A stretch of 63,514 bases of DNA, filler included, from Asterionella formosa (Eukaryota): assembly GCA_002256025.1 (NCBI GenBank). It is 22 parts of 22 records of this genome, joined end to end, with 100 filler letters (N's around TTAATTAATTAA, not from the genome) between each part and the next. Parts side by side here need not be neighbours in the genome. Positions count along the whole stretch, not along the records: positions 29,278 to 48,233 come from NKIB01003896.1; 21 more parts are not named here. One strand, written 5' to 3'. Below the pieces are notes generated by a model, which worked only from the letters and a program-made list of their open reading frames with translations, had not been told where the DNA came from and did not search any database. The number at the start of each line of letters is the position of its first letter. The stretch's first letter is position 1. Below are positions 22,064 to 57,882 of this stretch, piece by piece. Position numbers and translations under genes: made by a program.

Positions 22064-22198
22064 TTTTTGCAACAACAACGAAATACTAGCGATGACAAGC
22101 GGAATGAATGTTTGCGAAAACATCTTCAATGTTTTTGCAACAACAACGAAATACTAGCGATGACAAGCGGAATGAATGTTTGCGATAACGTCTTCAAT
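22064..22198 (+). repeat. 68-bp tandem duplication inside a decayed coding-like repeat related to about 19670-20180
   Basis: TTTTTGCAACAACAACGAAATACTAGCGATGACAAGCGG.. occurs at 22064 and 22132. Confidence 0.9.
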
Positions 22199-24177
22199 TT
22201 GTTGGTCAAGTGATCTTTATATCTTCGAGTAATCGTCATGTGCAGTGAACCTTTGTTCATAATCATTCAATTAAGAGTTTACAGGAGAGAAGAAACCATT
22301 CGAACTCGTAATGTTTCCGCACACAGCGCACAAAGTATATCCGTTTCGTCCACTTCAGCATGACAATCTCGCCAATCAACCCATAAACAAACACATTCTA
22401 CTTGTTCTCGTTGACATTTTCAATTCTCACATGATACTACATCTACTATTGAGATTCAGCATAGAAGGAGATACGAAAATGTGCGTAACAGACTACTGTC
22501 CACATAGCTATAGCCTAGTTATAGAATGATTCTGATTAGAATGTGTTTCATTTTCATATCGCTCGCTCGTTTCTGCATTTGGTATACTGTACTTGAATTA
22601 ACTATTGAACTTGTCCACATCTTTGATACCATCAAGAGAGCGAAAGCAAGTGGCTCTTTTCATTGTTGTTTGCTTGTAGGAAGAATTTGATATCTGTATC
22701 GTCATTTGCTTGTTGGAATTGTCCGTTGCCTCAAACTTGCTTGGCGTGTGCGTGCACACACTGTCGACTTGCTTTCAATGGTATGTTGTTCTTGTATTCA
22801 CTNNNNNNNNNNNNNNNNNNNNNNNNNNNNNNNNNNNNNNNNNNNNTTAATTAATTAANNNNNNNNNNNNNNNNNNNNNNNNNNNNNNNNNNNNNNNNNN
22901 NNAAGTGATGTTATCAAAGTTCATTCATGGATGACTTCCAACAGGATCTTGCAGAGCTATCCACTACCAAAGGAAACTATGATTGTCCTCACTGTCATGA
23001 GTATGAGACTACAGAACATATGCTAACTTTTACTGCACCGAAAATCAGGCACAACCACCAGGAGGTGGGGATGACATTCTTCACATCACAGCCAAGTCCA
23101 CTTAATATACACTTAATGCACAATCCAATGAATTTGTTTTCGGAGCACTATACTCTGGGCACCACTCCGGGAGAAAAGTCAAAATTTGAGCAGCTATCAA
23201 ACAGCAATGACAAATTGGTAGAATATTGATGATGAGGGGGTAGTACCTCTCAAATCAATGGGGATTTGAAATTCCAGAGGAGTCAGAGAACACAATGGTA
23301 ATAATGGCACACCATTGGACCCAAGCAGAAATCTCTCAGATCTGGTTAGTTGCCTCTGCAGCATGGGAGGAAATGAACACAGTTTTTTTACACATGCGAA
23401 GTAACAACATTCACAGAAAATGCAATTCCCACGCATAGTCTTCAACTTCTGACTCAACAATGGTATTATCAATACAAGTTGGGCATGGAACATGATTGAA
23501 TGGAAGAGAGGATTCATTCACGTGGGGAGATTCAACAGAACTCATGGTTGATTGTTGCGTTGTTTGATGTTACTATTTTGTTGCTCAAAGGAGAACCATG
23601 AATATATAGAAACAGGATGATTATATGCTCGAGTTATATATAGCTTTCGCTAGTAGTCTACTATACTTGTGCTTTTACAGGGAGTAAGTTTATATCTACA
23701 TTGAAAAATGTAAATATAACAGAAATGTGTTCATTTTGTTTGAAACGGAACTCTATCAATGTGGCGCCAATTTCTACTTAGTTTAAATATTAAGACAGAT
23801 ACTTGCATCATGGGAATACACAGAAACGCATTTCCTGCCCCATGCCAATTTTACATCCCTAGGCCATGTTTTACTCCAACCAAGGGTCAAGCCAGAAAAA
23901 AATGCTCAATCGCAGAGGTAGAATTTATTTACTATATAATTGTTGCTCTACTATCCCTAATTTTTTTGCTCACTACCCAAAATCTTTGCTCATTGCTAAA
24001 TAAATTTGATCTCTGAAAGTTGGCACGGTTTAGCAGTTATTACCTTTTCGTAATTGCGGTTATAATTTGCATTTACTNNNNNNNNNNNNNNNNNNNNNNN
24101 NNNNNNNNNNNNNNNNNNNNNTTAATTAATTAANNNNNNNNNNNNNNNNNNNNNNNNNNNNNNNNNNNNNNNNNNNN

Positions 24178-24760
24178 AAAGTCCAAAGAATATCTACAAG
24201 CGAGAGACAGGATTATCAGCAATGTCCTGCAGAGCGCAGCAAGTTCAGGTGGGAAAATTCGTCTCATCTCCATGGCTGCAGTACATAAAACACATACTAT
24301 CACAACGCAAGGAGAAATTTAAAATCAACTTCGACCCAGGAACTTCGGAAACAATGAAAGGAAATATATCAAAGGCAATAGAACAGCAAAACCAATTGGG
24401 CCTAATTTTAACGCTGAGGGGGCATCTTGGCAAGGGATGGAAAAGCGCGGTTTACCATTCAGAGGAAGATCGGCAACCAAGAACAGAAGCGCAGCGCAAC
24501 AGTTGGGCTACAACGGCAATACATCAATTTTGGAAAGTAATCATTGGAGCATGGAACGATTGAAACGAGGTGCTTCATAATGGGAAAAGCAACACGATTT
24601 CCCAATGGGAACATGATGAAAAATAAAGAGGTACTACAGCAGAAAAGGAGAAATATCCAGGAGAGATGTTCGTCTATTCAGAACAAAGATATAGGAGTTA
24701 TTGACGGCGAGGCTTAGCAAAAAACTGAGATTTTTAGATAGAGCAAAATATAATTTATCC
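24178..24760 (+). mobile_element. Non-LTR retrotransposon C-terminal region, decayed
   Basis: AIEQQNQLG..LRGHLGKGW..W....I...W....GAWND*NEVLH fits the Q..IG....RG.....W..W..RN...H pattern at LINE ORF2 C-termini. Confidence 0.65.
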
Positions 24761-25452
24761 GCTTCCAAGGGAGCAGCCCTGCAGAAGCAGGACAACAATC
24801 AATTTAGGCGTAACACAACAAGAAAAACCACAGGAAGTGCGATAAATGGGCGATTATACACACAACCCAACATAAATAACCAATTCTCCAAATGACATGA
24901 GGAGTGCAGACCAAGAGAAGAGTTCCAAGAACAAAGGTACCACAATTTTTTCCAATACTTCCACAAGAGGAAGTGACAAATATACCAAAACCTCCATCAC
25001 CACACCTCTTATGATGGGCCATGGAGCGCAACGAAGACAAATCTAGGAATAGACTGGTAAGAACAATGCGCTATAAAAATGATTAAAACATAAATGCTGT
25101 TGATCCCTCCTCCCGAAATTTTTTTCCGTTGTTGCCATTAGAGATAAAAATGGTGTATTTGTTGATTAATTTAATTACATGACATATATAAAATTACAAT
25201 GCTGTATCTGCAGGGATACATACAGATACACATTTCAGAGCAACAAAAAAGTGTTGCTGGAAGCAACATAACCCCCGAATGTTAGAGATACAAAAAATTG
25301 GACTGAGCAACTTTCTTTAAATTTTTGTTTCTCTGTTAAGAAGACCTGCCCTNNNNNNNNNNNNNNNNNNNNNNNNNNNNNNNNNNNNNNNNNNNNTTAA
25401 TTAATTAANNNNNNNNNNNNNNNNNNNNNNNNNNNNNNNNNNNNNNNNNNNN

Positions 25453-26566
25453 GTGACAATTCAAAAAACCGTTGATTCAATTTCTGCTTCTTGTTTTGTT
25501 CCTGGATTTCATGCCGGTGTTTGATTTCCAGCATATGCTCAAAAAGCGGTGGTCCTAGACAAGTGTTTCCAACAGCAAAATGCAGTCCTGTGGTCATTCA
25601 TTTGTTTGTGTCGATTGCTGCTTGTGCTGTTTGCTTTCTTTTCCTTGCATGTTCTGCTGCATCATTACCATTTCGCACATCTTCTCTGTTTATGTATTCA
25701 ACAATTTGATTTGTAAGAGTTCCTGAAAGTCCTTCTTGCAGGTTGAGCTGGTCAGGTGTAATAAAGGTTCTGTTGCTGTGTGAGATTCAATTCAATGGGA
25801 CAACACCAAATTTCGTCAGCTGTATTTCAGGATTCAACAAACAATTATAGTTCAAAGGTCCCCAGCCTCGCTCTGCTACCGCTTTTTTGTTTGTGCATAA
25901 TCTCGCAAATCTTTTTTCCCAAGAAGTGAATTTGCAAGTTGCAGTCGCTCCCTCTCGGCATGTGATGGGCGGACGCATTTTACCCAACTGATCAATGAGC
26001 TCCACAATGTAAGGTTCCACTTCAAGCATAGGTGAGATGCGAGCTGTGTTTGTTCCTTGATTGTTTTTTCTTTTTGCACGTGTTCTAACTGTTTCGAAAT
26101 TAATATTGACAGCAGGAGGAATACCAAGCGCCTCCTTTTCTCTCAATATTATACAGGCAAGTGTATTTCTCTTCACTCGTGATTCTCCTCCTCCTTTTTC
26201 TTTTCCCTCTTCTCTCACCCTCATATATTCTGCTGCCGAATTGGAAATACATTCTTTCACTTTTTCTGCCATGATGGAGCTGGCTACTGCGGTTGTTCCC
26301 TTTGGACAACCACCATAGGGCAGGGTTCTAGTGGCAGAAATGGTGCTGCTACTTTCAGTTGATGCAGTAGTAGTGCTGGCAGGAGGCGAACTAGAACTTG
26401 TAGACATAATCATAGTATTAATGGAAGAATGATAATGAATTTTTCTGCTATAGCTGTAATTTTCTACACCTTCCATTGTCAGCATAGATATTTCGCTTTT
26501 TTGTGATTCTTCATGCACATCCTCCTCAGCAGGCTGTTTGTCCATGCTGGTAGCTACTGGTGCCAC
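25453..26566 (-). mobile_element. pogo-like transposase relic with the DDE core deleted
   Basis: GG.PKGTT, ISPMLEVEPYIVELI..LANSL (CENP-B-like HTH region) fused directly to KAVAERGWGPLNY. Frameshifts present. Confidence 0.55.
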
Positions 26567-26727
26567 CAGATAACCTCAATTTCCTTAGAAAGTATTTCAC
26601 TTTCTGTGTAGTCACCCATGGGACAAGNNNNNNNNNNNNNNNNNNNNNNNNNNNNNNNNNNNNNNNNNNNNTTAATTAATTAANNNNNNNNNNNNNNNNN
26701 NNNNNNNNNNNNNNNNNNNNNNNNNNN

Positions 26728-27902
26728 CCTTTGCCAGTACTCAGCATGATGCTCTCAAAATTTAATCCGTCAGCTTGTATCTTGCAACAGAAGTACCTGG
26801 TCGTAGTACCTTCTGCGAGTTTGCTCATTTGTCCAGCTGATTATTTTATGACGGATAATTTACAAATACCATGTCCTGTCTGTATGGTGGATATATCAGT
26901 GTTTTTCTGCATGTCATGCATTCCTATAATGATACGTACAGAACATTTGCACAATGGTTTGATATATTTTGATACACCTATCAAGGATTATGTTTACACA
27001 TGGAACATTCAAGCTCCTAACTATACAGATACGGAAATATGCTGTTATGGCTGAAGTCCTCCAGCACCATTCTATATGAAATGGTCTGTTAAAGAAACTG
27101 ACTCATTGGGATATCGATAAACTCCAACCGACTTCAAATTTTGGTCTTCAAATCTTAAAACAGGATTGAAATGGAACTAGACCATTTGTTTGGTTACCTA
27201 TGCATACATCAACAAACTTGTGCATCAATGAAAGCATTGTTAGTTGCAGATACACTCATGAGTTATCCTGATCGTAATTTTCCTTTCCATATTTTTTACT
27301 AAGGTTTCTGATTGTCAATTAAGAACCTTTCAAAGAATTTCGCTCTATGTCATTGAATGCGGTTCTACATGTTCACACTGAACATCATATTTTTTTCTTT
27401 ATTACCCTACACAGAAACTCAGCGTGTTCTCCGGTGGAGGATTTATATTGAAGAATATCTTCTCACTTTTCACAATATGAAGGGTACTGATAATGTGAAA
27501 TATTACAGATTCTATCTCTCGCCTCCCGAGGCTTGAGTCTTTGGTGGGGGATGATATTGGACCGAAATTTTCGACATCAACATCCATATCTACTTTCTCA
27601 ATTGAAGTAGATGATGATTCTTTGTTTACCTGTTCCCTCAATCATCCAATTTTGGCAGACAATATTCAATATCCTCTGGAATATTACTCCATACATGATA
27701 GACAATTGCTGGATATACAATTGATTCTCAATCAAACAACTCATCTCATTCTCAATCAACAAACCAAACACATCTGTTAAAATTTCCCTCTATCAATTTT
27801 CATCATATACATTTAATGTATTTTGTGAAGAATCCAGGAGATACTTGACGTATTGTTATTCCTACATCACTATCGAATCCTATTATTTATTGGTATCATC
27901 AG
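26728..27902 (-). repeat. Contig that is the near-identical reverse complement of 48334-49508; decayed coding-like sequence of unknown TE
   Basis: Same ORF set in opposite orientation, identical end points, a few SNPs. Confidence 0.93.
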
Positions 27903-28002
27903 NNNNNNNNNNNNNNNNNNNNNNNNNNNNNNNNNNNNNNNNNNNNTTAATTAATTAANNNNNNNNNNNNNNNNNNNNNNNNNNNNNNNNNNNNNNNNNN
28001 NN

Positions 28003-28420
28003 GCTTCTGCCTGAGCTCAACTCTTGTAATTGTGTCTTGAGGTCGATACTTCTTGTTCAGAGCTTCCATTACTAAATAAGCAAGCCCACCTGGCCACTCT
28101 GGAGTCATCGCCTTGTACACCAATCCCATTGTTCCTTCAGATGTGAAAGCCATTGACAAATTAGCCATAGCTACACCATTTCTCCTGATGGCCAGCCAAT
28201 GCTTTCAACCTGCCATCATCAGTTGTTTCATCAATCACCTCATCTTCTCTTGCTGGCATCATAGCCTGTGGAGCTAATGCCTCAGCAAATCTGCTAACAG
28301 TGGCATATGCTCTAAATCGAGTATTCCACATTTGAAATTTCTTGTGGCTGGTCTCCATCAAACATTGGAAGTCTCACACTCATCTTGTCACTATCGCTCC
28401 TTGGATCCATCCATTGTGAC
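28003..28420 (-). mobile_element. Ty1/copia (CoDi-like) gag fragment, frameshifted
   Basis: MSVRLPMFDG..KFQMWNTRFRAYA..MANLSMAF..EWPGGLAYLVMEALNKKYRPQD, a gag/UBN2-type N-terminus. Confidence 0.8.
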
Positions 28421-28759
28421 TTAGTACAAACTTTTGTTTTCTTTCTTTCACCGACAATCAGCCTCTGGGTCCTAACCTTTATACTTCGAAGTATGTTGAA
28501 GGGCTCCAAAGACTAGTACCTTAGTATTCAAGTCAGCAAGGTTTCTCAGATTGTGAACTAATTGTAATTATATCTAAACCTTCAATCCTGCCAACTGGTC
28601 CTGCCAAACTTAATCCTGTCAAATTCAATCTTACCAAATACAATTCAAGACTTCTACTCCAACTAATTTTGATCCCACTGTCAGTCCCATGAAACATTTC
28701 ACGACTTGACTCATCAGACTCTCAACGTCACCCGGAGTCTTTATAGCCTCCAACCTACT

Positions 28760-29090
28760 ACCCGTAGTAAGGTAATGTTCATAAGGTAGATGAACATTTT
28801 CTTCTCTTGCAGCAGCATATCTTCTGTTCAGCTCCTCAGTATGGCAAGCTCGTTCCCTTATATTGTAAGCAGAGAAATTGCCCGATGTCTCAGCATAGCA
28901 CTCAATGAAATATTTCTTGAATCTTTTTTTATCGAGTCGCCTATACTCAGGAATGTCACTGTCATGGAGATCCTCCATAGTCATCTGGTAGAATGCTTTA
29001 TAGTTGCTGTTTGCCTTTAACATCTCTTGGTGTTCTTTGGGAACTGTCAGGTAATGACGTTCCATACGTTTTGTCATGGCTTCCTTGCTT
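28760..29090 (-). other. Fragment of a multicopy unknown protein family (also at 19230-19423 and 20506-20699)
   Basis: MLKAN.NYKAFYQMTMEDLHDSDIPEYR..DKKRFK is shared by three contigs. Confidence 0.6.
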
Positions 29091-29277
29091 TTATGAATTT
29101 AACTGGCGTGATAATTAGCCAGGCTGACGAGTTACTACCGGTACCAGGTAGTACGTCTACATCTTTTATCAGCACCTNNNNNNNNNNNNNNNNNNNNNNN
29201 NNNNNNNNNNNNNNNNNNNNNTTAATTAATTAANNNNNNNNNNNNNNNNNNNNNNNNNNNNNNNNNNNNNNNNNNNN

Positions 29278-29423
29278 CGCACCTTAATCGTGTTCCCTGG
29301 CGGAGGCGAGAAGATATCCCAGATTACCGCGGAAGCGATCATATCCTTGGGTACCATAATATCTTTCGGTGAATCTGTGTTGTTGATTGCCGCATTTCGC
29401 GGGGCTACATGGCTTTTCGACAT
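29278..29423 (-). CDS. Possible N-terminal part of a gene running off the contig
   Basis: ATG at 29423 (MSKSHVAPRNAA..), open to the gap, coding-like composition. Confidence 0.3.
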
Positions 29424-29664
29424 GGTTGTTGAGCTGGTTATGTGGTAGAATAGCTTTATAATACAGACAAATGTAGTAGAAGCAAGATAAAACGAAATCA
29501 AGTGATGCTCTGATATCTTCCTGTCCTCGCTCGCGGAGCATGTGGCTGGTTCCCCATATCAGCCATGTGTACGTGGTATGATCGCGGTAGGAATTGCTAC
29601 CGTGGTACTCCCTCTGTCTACCGGTAGTAACAGTTGCATCGATAATTCAAATTTATCCGGGGCC

Positions 29665-30960
29665 ATTTTGACTCCTACGATTTTCTCCGGCTCAATTGCC
29701 CTATTGTGCGGCTTGTTCTAAGCTACAGAATCATGAATATATTATATATAGAAAGATTAAAATTGGCAACTACATTTGAAAAAAACGTTTTTGGGATTTT
29801 TCGATTTTCACTTTTTGCTCTCGCGAGCAAAATGCAGATGCATGAGGACCCATTTTTCTTCAAACCATCTATTCTCAACATACGGACAAAGTACGATATA
29901 ACAGTAGAACAACTGCAACTTGCGTTCAATTATGGAATGTGCAACCCCGTAAGTGGCAATGATGGGAAGGAAGAAAACGACGGTATGCTCGTTCTGAGGA
30001 TTGTAACCGTTAAACATCCGGTTGCATGGTCCATGTAGGTGCAACAACCGTAGAAAGCATACCGAACAACAATTATTCTATTCAGGTTGTAATTATGACA
30101 GTGGCTTGTTGTATTTGGTTTCCCGCAAATATTTGACTGGCCGGCCGATGTGAAACAGCAGTCGGCGATATGTACATGATTGCAATGAATATGCGTATGT
30201 TAAATTGGTTTGGATTAATATATTTACATGCTAAAACTTTAATTACAGAAACCAAGTATTTGTTAACGTCTATGTAGCTCATAAAAAACGTATTTTTTCG
30301 AGTACGCCGACCCTCTCGTAGAAATTTGGTATATTGGCTACATAATCCTTCATATGCGAACAGTAAAGACACTGGTGGTATCGGCGAATCGATGCAACTG
30401 TTAGTACCTGGTACCTGGTACCAGCAATCAAGTGTCGGTACCAGGTACTCCTACTGGTTGAAAATAATTGCTGCTATAGTAAGTATTGTTCAAACTTTCT
30501 CAAGGGTAATTTTGATTCCTACGATTTTCTCCGGCTCAATTCCCCAACCTGCGAAATCACATGAAGCTACAGATCCATGTATGATATATATATATGTATA
30601 TATTCATAATTTTAAAATTGGCAACTACGTATCAAAAAAACGTTTTTGGGCTTTTTCGATTCACTTATGGCTATCTCGAGCAAAATGCAAATGCATGAGG
30701 ACACATTTTCTTCGAACCATCTATTCTCAAAATACATACGAAGTAGGATATTACAGTAGAACAATGGCAACTTGCGTTCAATTATGGAATGCGCAACCCC
30801 GGAAGTTGCACTGGTGGCAAGGAAGAAAATGACGGTATGCTTGTTGAGGAAATTGCCGTGAAAGATCCGGAGGTATGGTCGAAGAAAGATGGTATGATGG
30901 CTACGTAATCCTTCATATGCGAACAGTAAAGACACTAGTGGTGCCGGCGATTCGACGCAG
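29665..30960 (+). repeat. Two diverged tandem copies of a non-coding element (about 29665-30396 and 30509-30960)
   Basis: Shared ATTTTGA.TCCTACGATTTTCTCCGGCTCAATT start and GGCTAC.TAATCCTTCATATGCGAACAGTAAAGACACT end. Copy 1 has about 300 bp extra. Confidence 0.8.
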
Positions 30961-31162
30961 TAATTTTCAACTAGTGGGAGCACCAGGTAATACCCGATAG
31001 AATACCAGTAGTAATACCCGGTACCAGGAACCGGTAGACTGCCGGTAGTATAGTACCAGGTGCCTGGGAATGCCTGATCAACCGGATGTTGCTGAATGCG
31101 GTTGTCATCTTCTTTGATAGACTATTTATTATGAAATATTTGCCAACATATAAACAGTACAT

Positions 31163-31236
31163 GCCGGCGTAGCTCAGCTGGTTAGAGCGTGGGTCTAATA
31201 AACCCAAGGTCGTGGGTTCGATCCCCACCGCTGGTA
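31163..31236 (+). tRNA. tRNA-Ile, anticodon AAT
   Basis: Cloverleaf: acceptor GCCGGCG/CGCTGGT, D arm GCTC..GAGC, anticodon stem TGGGT/ACCCA with loop CTAATAA, T arm GTGGG-TTCGATC-CCCAC. T4 terminator at 31241. Confidence 0.95.
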
Positions 31237-32472
31237 TCACTTTTGGACATACATTGCCGCATCTTTTTCTTAAACCGAAGGTCGTGGGTTCGATCCCAAC
31301 CGCTTGCTGTGATGTTCTCCATACGATACACTGTGCCTTAGCTCGGTGATTTTATACTGCAGTAATACTGCGTGCTTTTTTTAGAGAAAGATAGTATACT
31401 GCTGGTATACCGTATTCACTTGGCAAACAGATAAGTATTTTAATATAGAAATGACAGTATACCAGTATACTGATACTGCTTCCAAAGCAGTATTCTTATT
31501 GTCACTCAGTCATGCATGCTTGTGTGCTTGTGTGCAATTTTTTTCGGCCAATAACAAAGGATGCAGCAGGCAATCATGGCAGCTACTTAAGTGCTTTGGT
31601 TCTATCATGTTAATCTACTTGATCATCATCTATCTCTAATGTGATAGTCCTGCCCATTGCTTTACTGACCACAACCTCATTCTAGTAATGTCCATTCATT
31701 TTTAGAAATATGATTGCTTCAAACACAGTAGGTGATGTTGACTTCTTTACACAAGTAAGAATGTGCTTGGCAATGGAAAGGAGCCTTTCACAACTTACAG
31801 AAGTACCAAGAAGGAAGTCAAGACAAAGATAATTTCTACAGTATGCCGATTTTTTCTATTTTGGTGTTGCTTAAAAGCCCAAGCATTGAACGGAATTTCG
31901 CTCTCCAATGCTACAAGACATGTCGGATTTTCTGAAGATTCCTACATAGCAGTATCCTGGCAAAATTTTGGAACAGTGTGGTATTTGGAATATAGAATGA
32001 CAGTATACTGGTATACTGATACTGCATTTGGAGCAGTATCAGTATCCAATACTGCAGTATACTTTCACCAACCTCTGCACTGTGCTATCTTAGGTGCATA
32101 GGGAGAAGCAATGTAGGAAAATTGGTACTGTACTGGAGGTACCAGTTACCAAGTACCAGGTACCCTGAATCAGACTGTTGTACTTTACAGTAAAAAGACA
32201 CTTCCTATTATATGTATGAGGAAAACAAAGTACCAAGTACCAGTACATAGACATACATGTATTTCATTTAATTAAGGTTCCTGCATTTGAACCCCTAGGC
32301 AAAAATTAAAATATTGCTCTATACCCTGCTACCAGGTACCTGGTACTAGTGTGGTGATGGTGGGCCTACCGGTACTCTGTTGCTCTAGTTCTGCAATTGT
32401 GCATTGCCTCACGCCTTGTATACGGTTACACTGTGAAAAAGGGAAAGCTGTTCTTTTCTAGCTGTGTTGCTT

Positions 32473-33532
32473 TCAAGGACCATTAAAAGGAGGATCCCCA
32501 GGACCTCGGTACTTGAAGATGGGACTACGGACACAATCTGACCCATAATATCGTCCAGTTGGCAGTTTACCAATAGCTTCAGATGTCAACAACCAGACTG
32601 GAGGGATTGCCCCAATAGAAGGCAAATTTTTTGCACCCATGCCTGTATTGTTACAGCTAGAGGTGTTAGAACAACAAGCTAAAGAAAACCAAACACATTG
32701 GTGCTTCCAAATACTCACCTTTAGTAATGTCAGTAGCAATAAATCCAGGAGTTACCGAGTTGATAATGAGATCTGGTTCTGATTTGGCGTGAAGGATGGT
32801 ATATGCGTTGAGAAGAGCTTTCGAGAGGCCATATGCCTCATTGCGTGTACCTGCATCTTGCAATGACTTTGCAAGATTATCCAACTCGCCGATACCTCCA
32901 ACGAATTGGCTTTCAGGAAATGTCAACTTTTCTCGGAGGACCGAATCGCTACAACTAGCCACAAAAACAGGGCCAGATGCAGATGCTATGTTGACGATTC
33001 GCCCCCCGGGTCGCTGAATGTGTGCAGACAAAGCATCATTAACTCTTCGGGGTCCAAAATAGTTTGTGTTCAGAGTCTCAGCTAAGGAACTACCAAATCC
33101 AATACCAGCATTATTGATGATTCCGAATAGTGGTCCGATGGAGACAGCCGCTTTGTAAACCGAATCATCCGAAGATGTGTCCAGTTCAACAAGTTCCAAA
33201 CGGTTGTGGCAAATGGATCCCAGCAACTTTTGAAGATCTTCCACTGCTTTTCGACCTCGATCAACATCTCGGGAGCCAAGCAGCACATGAACATCTGGGT
33301 GATCCTCCAAGAGCAGTTGGCAAATGGCCTTTCCAATGCCCTTGTTTCCTGTTGAAATCGAGGATAGGTTGGGTTGGTTCGGTCGCAACGGATGATAGCG
33401 CTAAAGAATAGGATATCAAGAGGGACTAGAAACCACCGGCATTTACTTACCTCCGGTGACCAACACTCTTCTCATTGTTTTCCGCTCATTTAAGGAAGCA
33501 AGCATGACAACAAGAGTGCATATCGCTTTCAT
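32473..33532 (-). CDS. Short-chain dehydrogenase/reductase (carbonyl reductase-like), 3 exons (33532 or 33475-33451, 33348-32719, 32642-32473)
   Basis: Splicing at GTAAGT..CAG and GTGAGT..CAG restores VLVTGGNKGIG. Also NNAG, VNIAS, catalytic YGLSK and PGFIATD. Confidence 0.92.
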
Positions 33533-33654
33533 GAGCTTCCTTTTACGTACCTGTGGTGTTCATTGAGGTAAATGTCCATCGTATGAATACAAGTTGCATG
33601 CATGGGCCGAAAAAACGAATCACGGCGGAAGCAAGCAAAAACCGCTGCAGAAAG

Positions 33655-34220
33655 TGACCTATGGTACAGTATGTACAACGCTAGATGTACTATATCATTA
33701 TGTAGATGGTATAAGTCCTATATAACGTTAACCTTATAGGCTATACCGGTACTTGTTTACTCTCACTGTAGAGATTTACACAATACAGACTGTGTATGTA
33801 CACCACGTCAACCATAAGTGAAAGGTGTAAGATACCGGTACCTGGTACCCTTTTACAGTACGCACACGACTAATTGGTACCATGGAGCCCATACGTAGCA
33901 CATATCATAGATGTAGACGAGACTGATCATGCATGATTAGTGCGTGATGCTATACACACGGCTACTAGTATGTAGGTCGTAGTACATATTGCATTATGTC
34001 CCCGCATCTATATGTTACGTGATAACTATTGGTACAGATGTACCTCTAGAATAACGGTAGACGCACCAATGCTACGGTAGGCTAAAACATGACACTTAGC
34101 ATGGACTCTTGACACCTAGTATGTACCCTTCTCATCAAGACCTTTGCGAGTCCCCATGGACTAGGAGCTAATATAGATACACTAATCGTGAAGCTCATAA
34201 TTACCCAGAACCTACTTGTT
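33655..34220. mobile_element. Second copy of the LTR, missing its last about 25 bp at this position
   Basis: Aligns with 12652-12866 plus 14842-15166. The missing end reappears at 38156-38181. Confidence 0.8.
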
Positions 34221-35740
34221 TAAGGTACGTTCAACAGCACCCCAATGGGCATCACTGGATTCTCTAAATGTTGAGAAAGTTCACGACATGCATTCGCGCA
34301 TATTGGTCCAACTTTCTTCACAAAATACAACAATTTTCCAACCATCGAACGATATTCTTTATGGAGAGTCACCTTGTCTGGATTCTTTCTGAGAACAATT
34401 CCTGGAAATGCTGGGGTTGATGCATCTCTTGGATACTTTCCAAAAATATCATGATAATCTTGGAGCATAACATGCACAAAACCCCCCTTGCTCGACTCCA
34501 AGTAGCGTCCCACTTTATCTTGGCCCAATCGTACCACACTCCAAAATGCTTCTTCAAAGGGCCAAGCTCCTTAATTGTGAAGTGTTTCTTGATTTCATTT
34601 TTGAACCATTTAATATCATTTGGCTTTCCAGCAATTGCACAATCATCGACATGTGTGGCAATTATTAGGATTAGTGCATTGTTTTCCGTGACAAAGAATA
34701 CACATGGATCGACCTTGCTTTGCCGCAATCCAACTTTGGTTAAGTTTTAAACCATCTTCTTGAAGAATTGTAGCGCTGCTTGAACTGTGCCATACATGGC
34801 CTTCTCCAACTTAATGCATTTGTTTTTCGTTGTTTCTTGTGTTTCGAAACCAAAGTCTAAAACCCCATCTGGCCATTCAATATAGATTTGCTCTTCCATG
34901 TCTCCTTCAAGAAAAGCAGCTTCAACATCAATGATTTCACAAACCCATCGTATTTCTTCAGACTTATCCCATTTGTATAACGAGAGAGCTATTATCATAC
35001 GCATTGAAGCATCTGTTGCAACTGGAGCAAATGAATCAGTGAAATCCAGTCCCGGGATCTGAACGTAGCCTTTCACTACAATACATCCTTTGTATCAAAT
35101 ACTTTTATCCTGCTCGGATTTCTTCTTGAATACCCAGCGTGTGCCTAACGGTTTTCTGCCCTTGAGATTGTCACGACGAACCATTTTCCAAACATTTCGT
35201 TTGTAGAAATTGTTGATCTCATTTTTAATAGCAACGGTCCACTGCTTGCTCTCATCTCCTTTCATAGCCTCCTTGTAATGCTTTGGCTCCCCAGGATCGG
35301 AAGCAAGAGTAGTAGAATACGCATAGAACCTCTCTACTCCTTCTTCACTTTGAAATGGTTTATCATCATCTTGATAGGCCGCTTCAGCATAATCGATTTC
35401 TTCAATTGATCCTTTGTCCTTGTCATATAGTTGTAAGTTGCGCCAAGCACTGGTGCGTTTGCCAGTAACTTGCTTCTTTCCAACCATAAAGGCGTTTCAA
35501 TTCTCGTTCCAATTTTGCTTTCTTCGAAGCATCTTTGTTGATCTCATCATCTAACTTCCCCACTGCTTCGGATAGCTGAAATCTTGTTTGTTTCACAACT
35601 AGAACAGGTGTTTCCAAATCAATATCCTGCTGGATAGGTGGCACAGCAGGAATAACATCTTCATCCTGCTTTTCATCATCAATTGGAATAACAACCATTT
35701 CTGTGTCCCCTTCCACATTGAAATCCCCCCTCAAACCTGC
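34221..35740 (-). mobile_element. Ty1/copia reverse transcriptase region, frameshifted, RNase H absent
   Basis: EPKHYKEAM..W..AI..E, PLGTRWVFKKK, KGYVQIPGLDFTDSFAPV, DVEAAFLEG, KAMYGTVQAA, DPCVF, HVDD, YRSMVGKLLY. Confidence 0.93.
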
Positions 35741-35789
35741 AATTGGACTTCCTTGACTGAGGGCTAAACATTCGGTAAGTGTCTCCAGA

Positions 35790-36980
35790 ATGATCTACTG
35801 ATGATGACGAGAAGAAGAAGTATGAGTTGAATGACAAGGCATATCAGCTATTGATTCTTAGTGTTGGTGGGATTGCATTTGGGATGGTGAATTCTGCCAA
35901 GACAGATGATTTGATGGATGGAGATGCTTTTCTTGCCTGACAGTATTTGGAGGATCGATATGCTCCTCATTAAGTTACTGATTGGATTCAGCTAATAGGT
36001 GAATTCAACGGTTGTAGTTTGGAGAGTACTAAAGCAGACCCAGATATCAAGAACAGAATGCGTCAAATTGATACATCATTTGAAAAGAAAGAGGTTGAAG
36101 TCATTGCGCACATGATGAACAAGTTACCTAAAGAGTACAGTGAAGTCATAACTAATATTGAAGGAATGGGTACTATTACTTAATCAGATTTGAAATCTAA
36201 ACTTCGTGCATTCTACAAAAGGAAGTTCAAGGATTCAAATACCAACGAGATTGCTTTGTCTGCAAATGGTAAATTCAAGGGACTATACAAGAATTGTGGA
36301 AAACAAGGACACAAGGCAGCCGACTGCCGATCTAAGAACAATACAGCAGCCGCAAACAAAGAAACGAAAGGCAAAGGTGTCAAATGTTTCAATTGCAACA
36401 AGTATGCAGGTCACATTGCTAAGGATTTTCCTGAAGAAAAGAAAACAAAGGAAAAGAAAGAAAGGAATGTTTGTTGGTATTGTTGAAACGATCGAAATTC
36501 ATGAAGAAAAGTCTGATACAGATGATGATGTTGAAATAATTGCCTTGATTAAAACCTACAAGAAGTTTTTTGACTATGAATTTGTTGAAGACACTAAGGT
36601 CTACACTACATGCGAAGAAACAGAATATGCATTTATTGGAGTGACTATTGAAATTGTTGATGAAGAGATCAATCAAGCACACCATGCGAGCGTCAAAAGC
36701 AGTGAGAGTAAAATTTGCGCATCAAGCGAGAAAAATGAACGTTGGTTAGCTGATACAGGCGCAACCAGTCATATTACTATGTGCAATAAGTATATGACAA
36801 ATGTGAAAGCAGTAAATGTACGCGTTGTTATAGGCGATGGTAAAGAAGTAATTTGCAAGGAGCGCGGAGATGTCTGCGTGCGAAACAAAGTGACCAATGA
36901 GACACTTTTGCTTAAGAATGTCCTATAAACAACCTACCTTTCATAAAAATATTATCAGCATTGGTACTTTTGTACGTGAT
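35790..36980 (+). mobile_element. Ty1/copia gag, zinc knuckles and protease, decayed
   Basis: gag helices, NCGKQGHKAADC and CFNCNKYAGHIAKD knuckles, protease WLADTGATSHIT and V.IGDG..V. Homologous to 55545-55878. Confidence 0.9.
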
Positions 36981-38659
36981 GATATTTACAAGGGTTGAGA
37001 GGGGGAGGAATAAATTCATTTATTATCGGCGCAAGGTTGTATGGGATTCAGTTGCAGAGCAGATTTGACGTGGTTACAGTGCTCAGACAGCGATTGACAG
37101 AATCTATGAGGTGTATGGTGAAGAACTTTCAGTGACCCAAATAATCAACCAAATAATTATTGATCGACGCACAGATGGAAATCCACAACTACGTATTTAG
37201 TTAACTTCTACCACATTAACTAGCATGCACGTTATTACATTCTCATTGTTTCCATTTAATGTTGTTATACATTTGATTTCATTTACCGATGTGTTAATAT
37301 GTATTGTACACATAGAGTTAATAATCACTGTACACATATGCACATATATATAGCATTGCATGATGAAGTACCAGGGTACCTGGTACTCCTACCTGATAGT
37401 CTTACTGATGATATGCAAACGTTCATGATCAGGTACTGGCTTTGTACACGGTGCTAGTAAACTACTAGTGCACTAGCTTCCCCTACGGGCAGCATTCTCT
37501 GTCGAATAAAAAGTGAATACCTATATAATATGATTGGTGAATGTGAGTTACATTCCTCTGTTTGATTGGCCTGGCTTGCGAGGTTTTGCAAACCCACGCC
37601 GGCCACATTGGATAAACATGTAACATTTTCTTGGGTGTACTGACAGTCCGGTGCTATATTCACGACGGATACCAGTAGATGATCATCATTGGACATACGC
37701 ATACCGCTCCTTGAGTGCACTTTCAAATATTTGCCAAGCCGCCCGGTTGTATACATGACACATATTTGTCAATGGGAGTATAGATTGGTGTAGTACTAGT
37801 ATATGCACATTGAGCGATGTAGAATCTAAATATATATATACCACATGATTTGAATATGTGGAACAGATTCAATGCATAGAGTATAGAAGATCATTAATCG
37901 GAGTATAGAGTGTCCATGCATATATGTTGATCGCATTTTAGGGTATATATACATGCAGCGACAGAGAGTGTTTGTATATTTATTTAGCGATTTCGACAAG
38001 GAATCTATGTACGTATTCGCAAATTTCCACTGATTTAAATATTTCAAATGGAATCACGTCATTCAAAAAAGCTAATTAAATTCTTAATTCCAGGGAGTTT
38101 TGGCAACCCTAAGCAATATTTTATTTTTTGCCTAGGGTTTCAAATGCAGCAACCTCAATCCTGACAACCGTAGGGAAGACAGAACTGGCTGTTAGGAAAA
38201 ATGTGAACCAAAGATTTACGTCCAGAAAGTATCATCATATGTTCCACATTTTTCTGTACCTGGTATGTACGATCATTAATCTACTTCTACCGTTATAAGA
38301 AATGCATGTCAACATTCCATGTGTCATGAATTGCACTCCTGCCCATGGAACACGACAATCCTCGGGTTCCCATGACTTACCACATCAGCACAACAAGTGT
38401 TTCAAATAATATTTGTATAAGAAATGAGAGTACTTGCAAGTTGCAGCCATTTTGCTGAAATGGACAACATGACAAAGGACAGGCACTCAAAATGAATAAA
38501 TAGAGAATGTCATCATCTCTCTCTTTGAGTTGACTGTATCACGACTTGTTAGTGATGTAAATAATTATTTTGTCTAAACACGGAAATGTCAAAACGAGGC
38601 AAATATAAGATAACAGATACAACAATTTTTAGCCTTTTTGATCTTACTTTTAACTTAAG

Positions 38660-39180
38660 CACGAGGTGACAAGAAAAGATACAAAGGTCACCTTGTTTGT
38701 ACAAGAACGTGTTCTAGCCTAACTACGAGGTGACAATAGGTACCAATGTCACCTGCTTGTTTGTACAAGAACGTGTTATTGCGTTCCCTCCATCACCAAT
38801 AGAAACCAATGTCATCTTGCTTTTTTATACAAGAACGTGTTATTGCGTACCCTCCATCACCTTTAGATATAACAAAGTCACTCTCTAACCCTAACCCTAT
38901 CCCTATGATGGACATGATTTAAATTCAAATCAATCGTATACGTAGTACCACTTTACATACAAAATTATCTGGGCAACATACTAGTAAATATGTATCACTA
39001 TGATGCACATGGTTTACATTCAAATCAATTGTATGCCAGCAGTACGTATGTTACATGCAAAATATCTGTGCAACATACCAGTATATAGATATCCCTATGA
39101 TGGGTATGATTTAAATTCAAATCGATCGTATACATACATTTACATAACAAAATATCTGTGCAACATATCGGTACCAGTAC
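38660..39180 (+). repeat. Two adjacent minisatellites (about 62-bp x3 and about 95-bp x3) separated by (TAACCC)2-TATCCC
   Basis: TACAAGAACGTGTT at about 38700, 38764 and 38828. CTATGATG..ATG.TTTA.ATTCAAATC at about 38903, 38998 and 39095. Confidence 0.8.
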
Positions 39181-42100
39181 AGTAGAGGATACAAATACAC
39201 AGTAACAGTACTCACACAAGAGTAGTCTCGTATGTACATATACATATATGAATATCTATTATGTCTACTCAACAATAGATAGGCACAGATATGTACATAT
39301 ACCCATGTAAGACTATCTAAGTGCAACACGAATGATTCAAATTCAGATTGAGCGGTTGCTGATGGTTGCAGCCAGTCATAGTAAACATACAAAAATACAT
39401 GTATTTATATATTTATACTCAGCTACAATATTCTCTATGACGATGAATATTAAACATATTAGATGATAAATCGAATTTATATGATCATATGATCGTCATT
39501 ATAAGATGCATTACATGAATAAGATTTTTCTATTTGCAGATGTTGTGAGGGCAACCTTGCCTCATTTTTGGGCATCCAAATTGACAGGTCATCGCTTTCT
39601 AGTTTTTTCCTCAAATTAACACAACTGGGACTTATCACTTGGATCTTAGAAACTATTGCTGGTCTTGTTCACGGGTCTTCCTCACCTACTCGGTCCCCTA
39701 CACTTTTTGCACAAAGTGTCCGAAAATGGATAATGAGTTAGTCCTGGGAATTCATGATTACTTTTTTTGACTAAATATGTAGCAAATCAATAATAATTTC
39801 TATCAATGATTGAACATTTTTCTAACTAAATTTTAATTTACTCTTTTTGCTTACTAAAATGAAAATCGAAAATATAAACAATTTTTATATTATCATCGAA
39901 ATCATCAGTAAATAGGGGTCGGTTTCATGACATCCTGGTACTTGCTGCATTATAATGTCATACCCAGCTAAATGCTGTTACCTGGTGCAGTAATGCCGGT
40001 ATGCTTAGACAATGCTCATGACATGCATGTTGTGCTTGCGATACTACGGTTTGTGAAGATGGTCTGTACCAGGTACCAGGTACAGCTCTATGGACAGTAC
40101 CGGTAGTTTAGTAGCTAATAGAGTACCAGATAATAATAGTGCTGCCTGGTACCAGTGCCAGTGATATGTTGTGCATCTGAACCTATGCATGGTTTCATAT
40201 GATCCCTATATAGGACTACTGGTACCAGTTCAAATAATACTAATATATATACCAGTATATAATATATATGTTTCTCATAGCTACATACGCAATTTTGATT
40301 TGTACTGCTGTCGTAGGGGGACGATGCATGAGACAGCAACTCCGTCTTGACCATGACGAAATAATTACACTGAATATCTCCACGAAAATTGACAATGACC
40401 TATTGCTATTTCGTAGGTATATCGAGTCTGGCATAGACGAGATAATCGTTCAATAATAAATTTTTCTGCACCAATATCGACAAAGAAAATTAGAAATTAC
40501 CGCTAAAATTTGTTTTCGTGTCGTTTGCTCAGTTTTTAAGATATGAATAACAAAGTAGCAACAGTTTTGAGTCCGCAGTGACTAGCTGACTAACTTAATA
40601 GCTTTTACTAGATAATTATTTCTATCTGTTGTACAAATATATGAGAAAACTTGAGCGACAGTAATTTCGGAGAGAGCACAACATCTCAAAATGCAAGAAA
40701 ATACCACAATACATAATTTTGTACTGTCTATCATGTATGTACTAATTGACGTGGCTCATATATCTATGGGATCTTGAGCAGGTCATTTAGAAGGTGAATA
40801 TAGACATACATATAGACATGTAACAATACACTGCATGTTCTTTCCGCGACTAGAAAATTCTCATTTTGTGTAATGTCTTTCGGACACTATTTTGCAAAAC
40901 TTGTATTTTCTTTCTCACCTACTCCTGCGACATGAGAAGCTTTCGGTACTGAATCTAATGGTCCCCTTGCCCGTGAATCATGGAATTACCGCGCTGTTGT
41001 GGGCATGCTCCTCTATTTATCGACCCTAAATTTGACCAACTATTTCGTTTCGAGTTTGACACCAAAAGTGTACCAATCGAGTGCTATTGAAGAGTTATCA
41101 TATGATATTACTATGCATAAAATCAAGAGAAGGAGGCGACCGGAAAGGCTTTCGGAATTCAGCAGAAAGGAGAACCAAAAGTTTGGCGCCACCACGACGA
41201 AACTAAAATGAGATGCGACGACATGAATCCCACAAGAAGTCGAATAATCCAACAACCAGCCATGTCAATTTGATGAAGAGTCGGTATTTGAATCATCAAT
41301 CAATAGAGTTTAAATAAGGCTTGAGATGCTTGATGATGAGGAGCATTATGAAATGGAATTGCCCTTGACACTGTACAGAAAACCATCATTTCATGCCTTC
41401 ACGTGGTGCATGCTACTCTCTTCCAAGTTTGGAATTCAATTTTCCTTAATTAAACGGCAGTCAGTTGAGGGGCTATAGATATCAGTAATCTAATTCCCTT
41501 AAATAAACCACAGTCGATGTCGGCAATAAATCTAGGGGCTAGTGACAATATTGAAGGCACTTTGGCAATCAAAAAAGGAGCATATGACTATTACATATTT
41601 ATCGTACATTAAGAGTAAGTAACAGCTTGGTTCTACCTTCCTAACAAAGCTAAATATATATAAGGGTATACATACAGACACCCGAATGATCTGGTAAAAT
41701 CAGCTAATACTATAAGATAAAAAAATATCTACATCAGCCATAGTATACAGATATTAATCATTCAGCCACCGGTAAGGATCTTCTGGGTGCGTCAGTAGCA
41801 GGGCAATTTGCAGTAAATTAGTAGAAATTTAAATGGGTTTGCCTGATCACATGCAAACTTGCTTTTGTCCTTCTTACATCACACATCACCTGAATTGTCG
41901 TTGTTGTTGTCCCAGTCAACCTTGTCATCTTGTTTGTATTCTTTGATGTCTCACAACATCATACCGGTTGATTATTGGGTTTAGGTAGCAGCTTGGAGGT
42001 GATGAAATTGTTCCCGTTGTCCCCCATGTGGCAAACAAACTGAGGTAGCCCCTAACAGTAAGTGACAACCAGCAGAACCGATATTGAAGCACATCTTAGT

Positions 42101-43240
42101 CAACTAGAATCTCATTCCAGTTTTCCATTTTCATCCCTACTCTTTCTTGCGGAAACAGCTATAACGATAATGCAAGGAATGGTTTGATTTGCAAGAAAAC
42201 CCAAGTAACGAAAGTCCAAGAAACATCCTTCAAGGCTGACATCGGCAATCAAACAAGGAACCAGTTGGCGAAGATTTCAAGTTACGCTACAATCAACTGA
42301 GCAGCAGGGACAGGGGAATCAACAGACAGGTAGTTCAATGGACAGCTGTAGTAATGGAGGTGTGTGATTCACAGATGGATTGTTGGGAGATCAATTTTTG
42401 GAAATGCCATTGCAATCAAATTGCCTAGCAAATGGCCTACATATCCATCAGATCACCAAAGTGCTTCAAAACACATAATAGTATCTAAGCATTAATTCCT
42501 ATAGTTTATTATCATGATACCTGTTCATTAGTTCACCAACACAATCAAAAACACCACCATTGTTGATCACTGGTTGATTTAACATTGCTAGTGGTTTCTC
42601 ATGCTACATTGTGCTCAAGGGGTATCTCAATGACCGATTTCTCCAAAATAAGCAAGGAGTAAAATAAACTATTATAGGCATTTGTTGTGAGGCTCAACTA
42701 GAATTTTGGTGAAACTTGAAGAAGTTTTACTTATAAGAATAACAGGCAAAAAACCCCTGGAAAATACAAATGTTTGACTTTGGCAATGGTTGCATGCTAT
42801 AGTCAGAACCGTCATTACCCCAACTTCCAAGGCACAGTTTGTTGTAACTTTTTTATCAATGAGGTAAATGAAATGGCTGTGTATGAAGGGAGCACCAGGA
42901 GGTACCTGATACCAGTTAGTATTTGCCAGTTAATGATGAGTGTTTCGTCTGCAAATAGAATGACCAGGCAGACGCCAGCAAGAATGCATCATAATATTTT
43001 TTATGTACCGTGACACAGTCTCTCAACCGTGCGGTTGTGTAGCACCAAGATATTTTGGTAGACTCTACTGCGATGATATTGCGCAAAATCCACATGCGAC
43101 AGGCCAAACCAAATAGTAAAATTTGAAGCCGCAGTACATACAAGCCATAGGCGAATCAAGGTCCCACCACCCGTATGTTAAATGCGAATTGATCATTGAA
43201 ACACGCCTCTTCTTTGCATTAGCCAACCAACATATCAACC

Positions 43241-45887
43241 ATGGAATCTGAGACATCGCCTTCTGACACGGGGAGCGAGTCGAAGCTAATGAGCGTTAGT
43301 TCAGAAGAGCTGAACTTGCTTGTTTATCGGTATCTGACTGAGGGAGGTGAGACGTATAAAACCCTACCAGGGCTACGCAGCGGCGCAGTTTGCTGCGTTG
43401 TCTGTTTTGTCTACACAATGGTGATTTTGCTGTTCCGCACCTTGGCTGCCTTGTTGAACCGCATTTTAACCTATTGACTCACCAGTTTTGCGCTCGTGCT
43501 CATCATATCGTGGTATTTATTGATTTGAAAACCTTTAGGCTTTGTTCATGCAGCTTTTACATTTGCTCACGAAAGTCTACTGGGAAGAAGTAGTACGAGA
43601 AGTGCAGAAAAGGACATACCACCCGGTGCTTTAATAAGCTTTTTGCAAAAAGGGTTGCAATATGTGGCCATCGAGGAGAGCTTACGGGCGGATGCCGGAA
43701 AGAAAAGAAAAACAAAGGATTCTACGAATGGGGACTCGTTAGATTTTACGCTACTTTCACCAGCAACAATCCAGGCTCTCACACGTGAAAATCCTCCAAT
43801 ACAGTTGAGTGTACCCCCAGCTACAGCTGCGGCTGCCGTGAAGGCTCGTTTAGAAGCAGAAGCAAGAATGCATGCCGACGCGAAGGCAGCGGCTGTTTCT
43901 GACCAGTCCCTACCAGAACCAGTGACAGTCGCTGCCACGACGGAGTTACCATCGCAACAAACGCTAGAAACTCAAAATATGCTCGCCTTATTTAATAAGC
44001 AGGCGTTGGAAGCCCAGAAAACGCCAGTGCAATCTGCTGCCGCAACTATGCTAAGTCAGCTTCATCTTCAGTCAGGACTTGTTGAAGCGGAACAATCCTT
44101 TGTCCAACGTGCCGTAGAGGTCTCTCATCTTGCCGCCTTACAGCAGCAGCAACAACAAAAACATCAGGAATATATCCTTCAAAACAATGAAACTAGGCAA
44201 GGAGAAACCAGTCTTCAACAAGCCGCTGTTGCTTTAGCCATGGGCGTTGGCAAGGGAAAAACTGGGAGAAGAAAGGGGAAATTGCATCAAGGAAACGGTT
44301 CTGGGGGATCGAGCACGGGGTCTTCAGCTGTCGCATTACATTTGCAACATCATGTACAGCAGCACCCTCAAACATCTGCTTTTGCATCTCTAGAGGAGGC
44401 GGTAGCTAGACTTGAGGCGAAGCGAGCCGAAGAAGCACCGCTTTCAGCTAACTCTGAAGTCACCGCTATGGACGTTGAAAGCGATCAACATTCTTTGGAT
44501 ACACCCATCCATATTGGAGCAGGAGTGACACAATCAAGTAATCATGAAGTCATGAATGGACAATCAGACCTTAATGGAGCTTTGGCATTGGATCATGTAA
44601 TGTCGACGAGCAGGAGTAGTCTTTCCCAGGCTCTCGTTCATGTCAAAGTCGAGGAAGTTTTATCTCACCAAGAGGAAGATGATGCGGCTATTGAACACGA
44701 GGACGAAATTACTCGAGTCCTCAGCTCTGAAGTTCTGGTACTGAACAAGCATACATCCGAAGTGTTTATGTGCGCGTGGAATCCAGTGTACACTGATCTC
44801 ATCGCAACTGGTAGTGGTGATGCGTCGGCGAGAATATGGCAAATGGGTGGGCCAGATGCATCATCAGGATGTGGGCCAGTTCGCTTACTACCACACGGCG
44901 TCGACCCCAATGATCGCAAGAACAAAGATGTGACTACCTTGGAATGGTCTTCCGATGGCAATCTCTTGGCAACGGGGAGTTATGATGGCGTAGCCCGGGT
45001 TTGGAGTCGAAACGGTGCACTAGTTCACACCCTTGCACGCCATAGGGGTCCAATATTCTCCTTGAAGTGGAATCGCAGTGGAAACTATCTTTTGTCTGGA
45101 AGTTATGACCAAACCACTATAGTCTGGGATGTTTCGGGACCTAATGGCAAAGTTGTTCAGCAGTTCAATGACCACGCTGCACCGGCGCTGGATGTTGATT
45201 GGAAGGACGACACTACTTTTGCATCATGCTCGACGGATAAAAGAGTCCTTATATGCAGGGTTGGTGTTGAAATGCCTCTCAAAGTTTACACTGGACACAT
45301 GGATGAAGTCAATGCAGTCAAATGGGACCCTTCTGGGAATCTGCTCGCAAGTTGTTCAGACGACTACACTGCAAAAGTTTGGAACGTGACATCTGATCAA
45401 ACTGAGCCTATGTACGACTTCAAGAGTCACAAGGCAGAAATTTACACTGTGAAATGGTAGGATAAATCTTCGGGATGCTTCATGATTTTTTTCCATTATT
45501 ATCTCTCACACTGTTATTTTCCAAAATAGGAGCCCTACAGGACCTGGCTCGATACATCCACACAAGAAGAAAATGTTGGCGACGGCGTCATTCGATGGGT
45601 CAGTCCGATTGTGGAGTATTGACGACGGTAGCTGTTTGCGGGTATTTTCTCGTCATCAAGATTCTGTTTACTCAGTAGCGTTCTCGCCATCCGGAGATTT
45701 TTTAGCCAGTGGATCTCTCGCTGGTCAACTCTATATTTGGAATGTTCTTGAGGGAAAGCACGTAAAAAGTTTCAGGGGGAAGGGAGATATCTTCGAGGTC
45801 GCTTGGAATGTGGAAGAGACACGGGTGGCTGCCTGCTTTTCATCGAATGTTGTCCATGTCATTGACTTCAAACGGCCTCCGGCTTAG
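43241..45887 (+). CDS. TBL1: TBL1/TBL1XR1 (Ebi/Sif2/HOS15)-like LisH plus WD40 corepressor subunit, 3 exons (43241-43346, 43539-45456, 45530-45887)
   Basis: LisH SSEELNLLVYRYL.EG/GFVHAAFTF, PPGALISFLQKGLQY, and WD repeats HTSEVFMCAWNP, KDVTTLEW, HRGPIFSLKW, EIYTVKW/SPTGPG. Both introns are GT-AG and keep frame. Confidence 0.95.
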
Positions 45888-48233: not shown

Positions 48234-48333
48234 NNNNNNNNNNNNNNNNNNNNNNNNNNNNNNNNNNNNNNNNNNNNTTAATTAATTAANNNNNNNNNNN
48301 NNNNNNNNNNNNNNNNNNNNNNNNNNNNNNNNN

Positions 48334-57870: not shown

Positions 57871-57882
57871 TGAATTTAAGAT

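Follow-up and report, generated by a model that had tools for sequence, protein, structure and literature searches.

The 63,514-nucleotide stretch of Asterionella formosa DNA that was analysed here as a whole (the window, 63.5 kb) carries short, stereotyped fillers enclosed by two TAs in numbers far above chance, and these motifs are specific for TA, avoid coding sequence and, at the few sites where the direction of change can be read, represent the derived state. The explanation that we prefer, with a confidence slightly above even, is that they are excision scars of the Tc1/mariner type which were later expanded by slippage. Tc1/mariner elements target TA, and their footprints consist of terminal bases of the element between two TAs.

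Linkers of the form N44-TTAATTAATTAA-N44 interrupt the window 21 times, and it is thus composed of joined contigs from more than one molecule. Two long contigs (1-18972 and 29278-48233) are accompanied by many pieces of about 1175 bp each, which are arranged as follows.

18973-29277 and 48234-62342: chains of ~1175-bp pieces joined by linkers

Near-duplicates exist among these pieces, namely 19073-20248 versus 20349-21527 (99.4%) and 26728-27902 versus the reverse of 48334-49508 (99.6%). The excess of the word TTAATTAA (45 against 0.9 expected) was rejected as a genuine signal, since it is an artefact of the linkers by which the contigs are joined. Several features mark the organism as a diatom: DNA of the window was also found in freshwater and algal metagenome runs, the top named relatives of a NifU-like ORF come from diatom transcriptomes, and an intronless ORF of 2402 residues (4847-12055, minus strand) resembles by eye a fused menF/menD/menC/menH protein (PHYLLO) of the phylloquinone pathway, with apparent isochorismate synthase, MenD, MenH and MenC parts. 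An ORF at 52158-52883 (plus strand) contains a DDE_Tnp_4 transposase domain of the PIF/Harbinger type (E 2.3e-15), and interstitial telomere-like CCCTAA repeats are present at 51181-51198 and 38883-38900 (5 matches against 0.07 expected).

Within the window there are 18 occurrences of TACCGGTA and 35 of TACCWGGTA, against 0.33 expected in each case, and none of 100 dinucleotide-preserving shuffles reached either count. With the linker word set aside, no 8- or 9-mer of this DNA exceeds its expectation more strongly than the scar words. The excess is bound to TA: 18 of 124 CCGG and 35 of 122 CCWGG stand between two TAs, the runner-up among the 256 contexts reaching 5 and 4, respectively, and TA_TA is the only favoured context of both words. 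In the 43 non-redundant metagenome loci described below, 477 of 762 CCWGG are found in the TA_TA context. The context, the shuffles and the filler ranks given in the next paragraph all support the initial annotation in its view of stereotyped insertions at TA, which are more than a product of chance. Neither are the motifs an assembly artefact, because a contig of run X2 spans 38126-38518 gap-free, including TACCTGGTA at 38257, and because arrays occur in many other, independent assemblies.

The fillers form a graded series. CCWGG ranks first of 512, CCGG first of 136, CCAG/CTGG second of 136, CCG/CGG second of 32 and C/G first of 2, and the fillers predicted from the element ends CCA...TGG lead their length classes in the window and in the metagenome loci alike. 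Such a series would be expected if C, CC or CCA of one end had been joined to G, GG or TGG of the other. The filler CCA/TGG alone (TA-CCA-TA/TA-TGG-TA) is unenriched, with 11 cases against 8.3 expected. Palindromic fillers between TAs are enriched 3.2-fold at a length of 4 nt and 4.3-fold at 6 nt, which is above every other flanking dinucleotide. In place of the random fillers that would be at odds with a transposon origin, stereotyped and mostly palindromic ones were therefore found. A reading as hairpin (P-nucleotide) scars of the hAT type was rejected because the flank is not repeated in inverted orientation in the filler.

For individual insertion events, related sequences within the window were compared, in particular two LTR-like copies and a tandem repeat at 57597-57868 that is unrelated to them.

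12652-15169 (12652-12866 and 14840-15169), no strand assigned: LTR-like copy 1, interrupted by a 1973-bp element
33655-34223, no strand assigned: LTR-like copy 2, from self-BLAST and alignments, with several TA-X-TA insertions
33744-33751, no strand assigned: TACCGGTA in copy 2, replacing ~18 nt present in copy 1
57861-57868, no strand assigned: TACCGGTA in unit 3 of the tandem repeat, where units 1 and 2 have TA

Copies 1 and 2 are 75-80% identical by self-BLAST and, since the window is a concatenation of contigs, lie on different contigs. They are thus not both LTRs of one element; they are paralogous LTR-like copies. Only copy 2, not copy 1, adjoins degenerate Copia reverse-transcriptase fragments (Pfam RVT_2, 34369-35496, minus strand).

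Six of the seven examples on which the initial annotation had been built proved to be true indels in the pairwise alignments and the tandem repeat. Copy 2 has TA-TG-TA at 33699-33704, the chain TA-AGA-TA-CCGG-TA-CCTGG-TA at 33828-33847 and TA-ACGG-TA at 34052-34059, at each of which copy 1 has a single TA. Copy 1 in turn has TA-CCAGG-TA at 12807-12815, where copy 2 reads CA, and TA-C-TA at 15145-15149, where copy 2 has one TA. In the tandem repeat, units 1 and 2 read CAGTAAAT and unit 3 reads CAGTACCGGTAAAT (CAG-TA-CCGG-TA-AAT). The seventh example, TA-CGG-TA at 34073-34079, is a substitution, since copy 1 reads TAGGGTA at the same place. The CCGG inserted at 57861 is foreign to the local sequence, and neither there nor at 33833 does CCGG have a local template. 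By our own reading of the alignments, about half of the indel sites of the LTR pair are of the TA type. When the MAFFT gaps of seven paralogue pairs were tallied automatically under the rule "D becomes D-X-D", the rule held for TA in 4 of 20 gaps and likewise for AT in 4 of 20; this run missed or misplaced several events visible in other alignments. As TA is no commoner than AT in this tally, the paralogue evidence is thin when taken alone, and the weight is put on the motif counts.

Polarity can be read at two sites (57861 and 33744), the other sites having two witnesses each. At 57861, the scar is confined to a single one of the three tandem units. The ~18 nt that TACCGGTA replaces at 33744 in copy 2 are present in copy 1 as well as in 25 contigs of run X1, seen as loose ends at 33742, and from the copy-1-like sequence of all these witnesses the site is read as a derived state, in which a scar is combined with a flanking deletion. 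A scan of the metagenome contigs with a 22-mer of the LTR yielded no further copies. It could be argued that the motifs are ancestral and that plain TA arose by deletion between two TAs, as two-copy comparisons (the LTR pair, and L043 versus L110 below) give no polarity. This account is hardly credible, however, because the motif is the minority state at both sites with a third witness, because all five motif sites in paralogous regions of the window are confined to one copy, and because deletion gives no reason why the words should be 50- to 100-fold in excess.

The CCGG and CCWGG motifs differ in their surroundings. CCGG units are mostly solitary, and the flanks of solitary TACCGGTA sites are unbiased; CCWGG units are mostly found in arrays and in a GG..CC context, with G before 29 of 35 units and C after 30 of 35. 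We count this difference against the scar explanation, since one family should give the same context for both, although the proneness to slippage of GGTACC repeats spaced by 7 bp may account for it. In addition, pairs of TACCGGTA lie 66-102 bp apart around ordinary sequence at 33744/33833, 60772/60838, 63092/63190 and 4281/4383, an arrangement that could reflect local hopping.

Arrays are present at several places in the window.

4206-4228, no strand assigned: array TACCAGG-TACCAGG-TACCTGG-TA, three units in mixed direction
30405-30420, 32330-32345, 40067-40082, 50308-50330 and 51738-51753: arrays like that at 4206

Metagenome contigs with three units in a row represent at least 124 loci, many of them diatom-like and gene-dense. 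Three or more separate motif clusters are present in 54 of these loci, 43 of which are non-redundant (117 kb). The latter have 40-47% G+C, encode eukaryotic proteins such as HSF, cyclin, DUF6824 and LRR proteins and contain 477 TACCWGGTA, nearly all intergenic. High-G+C loci that have only the seed array are probably unrelated repeats.

Genes make up 11.9 kb of 61.7 kb in the window and contain just 2 of its 76 motifs. In the metagenome loci, long ORFs have 0.33 motifs per kb and spacers 8-9 per kb (9.3 per kb in divergent and 8.0 per kb in tandem ones), values that are biased upward because the loci were chosen for arrays. This confinement to intergenic DNA, dense in divergent and tandem spacers, would also be seen if the GTAC-rich words were cis-regulatory or chromatin elements under selection between genes. 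We nevertheless consider such a role very improbable, because copy number and unit direction differ among near-identical contigs and the words also occur as copy-specific insertions in LTRs and tandem repeats; moreover, the densities come from loci selected for arrays, and the contrast to convergent spacers depends on a single one of 403 bp.

The internal order of the arrays bears on how they grew. Among 186 distinct arrays of the metagenome loci, neighbouring CCWGG units point in the same direction in 255 of 363 pairs and in opposite directions in 108, and 17 further neighbour pairs include a CCGG unit. Pure slippage would yield no opposite pairs, whereas with independent events they should make up about half. 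Both processes thus seem to be at work, and the 108 opposite pairs are beyond what slippage alone can produce.

Three versions of one locus (L043, L109 and L110; 98.4-99.2% identical) show the polymorphism of a related metagenomic locus at the present day, as their four indels all fall inside arrays. Three of these are same-direction gains of one 7-bp unit, and one of the gained units is a copy of the variant TACCAGT, which points to slippage. The fourth is TA versus TA-CCGG-TA, polymorphic between L110 and L043. From the duplicated variant unit and the same-direction excess it follows that slippage explains part of the arrays. As to the earlier proposal that the system re-hits its own scars, which is supported only in part, the opposite pairs speak for it, and the same-direction pairs and the duplicated TACCAGT against it.

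Two linked changes 4 nt apart, at about position 1170 of L043 when compared with L110, convert GTACCTGGTTC into the perfect palindrome GTACCAGGTAC and flip CCTGG to CCAGG, which looks like the template-switch correction of a near-palindrome. Other metagenome spacers (e.g. L011, 1250-3010) are largely built of TAC, TAG and GTA words. In the metagenome loci, 1403 occurrences of TACTA/TAGTA compare with 361 expected, 120 of TACTAGTA with 3.7, 15 of TAGCTAGCTA with 0.18 and 10 of TACTCGAGTA with 0.13. These spacers may contain the scars of several element families, or microsatellites.

Some of these observations would also be met by a transposon-free account, in which GGTACC-based 7-bp minisatellites, (GGTACCW)n, originate and multiply through replication slippage and through template switching within near-palindromes and the TA-X-TA appearance is a by-product of the repeat unit. 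The three unit gains of the trio, the excess of same-direction neighbours, the GG..CC context of the CCWGG units and the perfected palindrome of L043 and L110 all agree with it. It offers, however, no origin for an initial unit where there had been just a TA (12807, 33839), nor for the solitary TACCGGTA with its unbiased flanks and a foreign CCGG that has no local template. The opposite-direction pairs, the exclusive preference for TA_TA and the graded series CCG, CCGG, CCAG and CCWGG are likewise left unexplained, and on balance we regard this account as unlikely.

According to the excision explanation that we prefer, a TA-inserting element of the cut-and-paste type would duplicate TA at each visit and, upon excision, a few terminal nucleotides would remain on each broken end. 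End joining would then fuse these remnants to CC+GG, to CCA+GG or CC+TGG, or to CCA+G, and the dominant family would end 5'-CCAGG...CCTGG-3'. A scar at GG-TA-CC, or one creating it, would give two GGTACC repeats 7 bp apart, and sites with such repeats would gain and lose 7-bp units by slippage, possibly also by further visits, and thereby develop into arrays. Solitary TACCGGTA cannot stem from slippage, because its flanks are unbiased and the CCGG at 57861 is foreign to the site. We infer a transposase as the maker of the breaks, as well as the identity of the element and the length of the staggered cut.

A more specific version appears doubtful to us. It holds that a mariner-like family present in one clade of diatoms cuts the non-transferred strand 5 nt inside the element, beyond the 2-4 nt described for this superfamily, and that the resulting CCAGG overhangs anneal with a central A-A mismatch, which would give TA-CC(A/T)GG-TA as the canonical scar. 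If this element also preferred GG-TA-CC, each scar would make two new preferred landing sites, so that the family would write its own target arrays; these would fill promoter-side spacers and be the main source of indel polymorphism there.

Candidates for the source element are present in the window.

12867-14839, plus strand: TA-flanked element of 1973 bp with a perfect 14-bp terminal inverted repeat, GAGTTGACCTGACC, from a TIR/TSD scan
29619-30413, no strand assigned: MITE-like repeat A, with a TA-flanked core inverted repeat, ACAGTTGCATCGAT, perfect over 14 nt (29630-29643 and 30388-30401)
30439-30989, no strand assigned: MITE-like repeat B, 80% like A internally

That TA-flanked elements with terminal inverted repeats reside in the same DNA was counted in favour of the scar explanation. 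The first of them splits LTR-like copy 1. Its broken ORF gave no Pfam hit, and an Atlas lead to DDE_1/HTH_Tnp_Tc5 (0.81-0.85) stayed below the 0.9 level; by eye, a pogo-like helix-turn-helix and a DDE motif can be seen, and the ORF is possibly pogo-like.

The outer parts of repeat A, which is covered by many contigs of run X1, read TA-CCGG-TA-G-TA and TA-G-TA-CCTGG-TA, the base between the TAs being G at either end instead of G at one and C at the other. They may be true termini of the form CC(A)GGTA, or scars beside the element. The 24-nt inverted repeat of repeat B (CCAGGTACTCCTACTGGTTGAAAA versus CCTGGTGCTCCCACTAGTTGAAAA, 20 of 24) begins with CCAGG directly after TA. Nothing else in the window is a candidate for an element with CCWGG ends beside TA; over the outer 7 nt of repeat B, a direct repeat fits slightly better than an inverted one. 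As the scars are near-palindromic, scars beside an element mimic inverted repeats, and for both A and B the flanking-scar reading fits the details about as well as true termini. A tRNA-Ile (AAT) gene at 31162-31238 (plus strand) lies directly to the right of repeat B, the spacer being rich in scar motifs.

Several other candidates were discarded. The palindromic chains at 31460 and 32013 were rejected as element ends, because each end is itself palindromic and the pair is therefore no evidence of an element. A third match to the core of repeat A at 63108 has no further similarity, and joints between array sites, with sides of about 21 letters, are array-to-array matches only.

A search for inverted-repeat elements of the form TA-CCWGG...CCWGG-TA in 254 kb of metagenome loci returned arrays only, and in the window it returned repeats A and B and no others. 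No Tc1/mariner transposase domain was detected by Pfam in the 40 window ORFs of at least 100 aa, nor in the 52 ORFs of at least 150 aa of the 43 loci or in 35 of 307 further locus ORFs. Of the TA-flanked elements with ends CC..GG that had been predicted, A and B are candidates, none with unambiguous CCAGG ends. Filled, empty and scar alleles at one site were not found together; L110 and L043 show the empty and the scar state only. Taken together, the TA specificity, the fillers and the derived state support in part the Tc1/mariner footprint origin put forward by the initial annotation.

At the TA into which the 1973-bp element is inserted in copy 1, copy 2 reads TA-ATTGG-TA (33871-33879), and the element's ends, GAG...CTC, do not correspond to this filler. 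Together with the flanking deletion plus CCGG filler at 33744, the mismatch is what one would see if breaks at TA, made by any TA-duplicating element or from another source, were repaired with filler templated from the GGTACC arrays instead of retaining transposon tips, by synthesis-dependent or polymerase-theta-type end joining with GTA/TAC microhomology. Filler DNA is indeed reported for 58 of 94 excision sites in rice (PMC4423477). The scars described here are, however, far more uniform than the rice fillers of 1-123 bp given in the same report (PMC4423477), the CCWGG word would still need a first source, and at no solitary site is there a templated copy longer than one unit. We therefore consider templated filler quite improbable and retain excision scars as the preferred explanation.

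As regards the genome of the window itself, of the indels found relative to metagenome reads and contigs (79 in all), none of the 12 listed is of the TA-X-TA kind, these 12 being ordinary ones. Between the near-identical pieces (99.4% and 99.6%) there are ten substitutions and a single indel, AAG, without a scar. Three contig pieces that extend across motif clusters show length differences of 14, 15 and 4 letters. The description as a major mutational process finds its support in the related metagenomic locus only, with all four indels of the trio inside arrays.

If our explanation is correct, one cut-and-paste family has left more than one recognizable scar per kilobase in this diatom, and related diatom-like metagenome DNA bears many per kilobase between genes. 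The scars would have turned into hypervariable repeats. Past transposition could then be counted from them, and they would supply variation to the promoter regions of an ecologically important group of algae and predict the cutting mode of the putative transposase. In a full-text literature search, whose scope did not include subscription journals, the 13-mer arrays had no match, the 8- and 9-mers matched unrelated papers only, and the literature on diatom mariner elements, MITEs and footprints held no description of these scars.

Among known systems, Mos1-type mariner has the terminal motif CCAGGT, which is like the tip CCAGG(T) beside TA that we infer for the diatom scars. The classical mariner scar retains three nucleotides of one end only; this form, TA-CCA-TA/TA-TGG-TA, is unenriched here (11 against 8.3). 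The canonical footprint of Sleeping Beauty is TACAGTA/TACTGTA, and scars of the Tc1/mariner superfamily are reported to retain 2-4 terminal nucleotides (PMC6943129). The diatom scars resemble these footprints in the duplicated TA around a few nucleotides, in the shorter variants found alongside and in a near-palindromic filler with a free central A/T, which is C-W-G in Sleeping Beauty and CC-W-GG here (PMC6943129). They differ from them in that the filler has 5 nt instead of the reported 2-4 nt (PMC6943129), and in that they form arrays and are frequent enough to top the 8- and 9-mer excess.

In rice, Roffler and Wicker (2015) report clean footprints for no more than 8 of 94 excisions, the remainder showing deletions and varied fillers that average 13 bp, and DNA-transposon excision has been proposed there as a major force creating diversity (PMC4423477). 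As in the diatom, excisions of TA-duplicating (Mariner/Stowaway) and other elements were read from the comparison of related sequences (PMC4423477), whereas the scars of the diatom are of a stereotyped kind and recur at the same places. Near-identical contigs differ by whole 7-bp units gained or lost within same-direction arrays, which is like the slippage of minisatellites and microsatellites; the 108 of 363 pairs with mixed directions and the solitary units at plain TA, with their foreign filler, are unlike it. The diatom scars depart from what is known in three respects, namely how uniform they are, a filler of 5 nt, and the arrays with their density.
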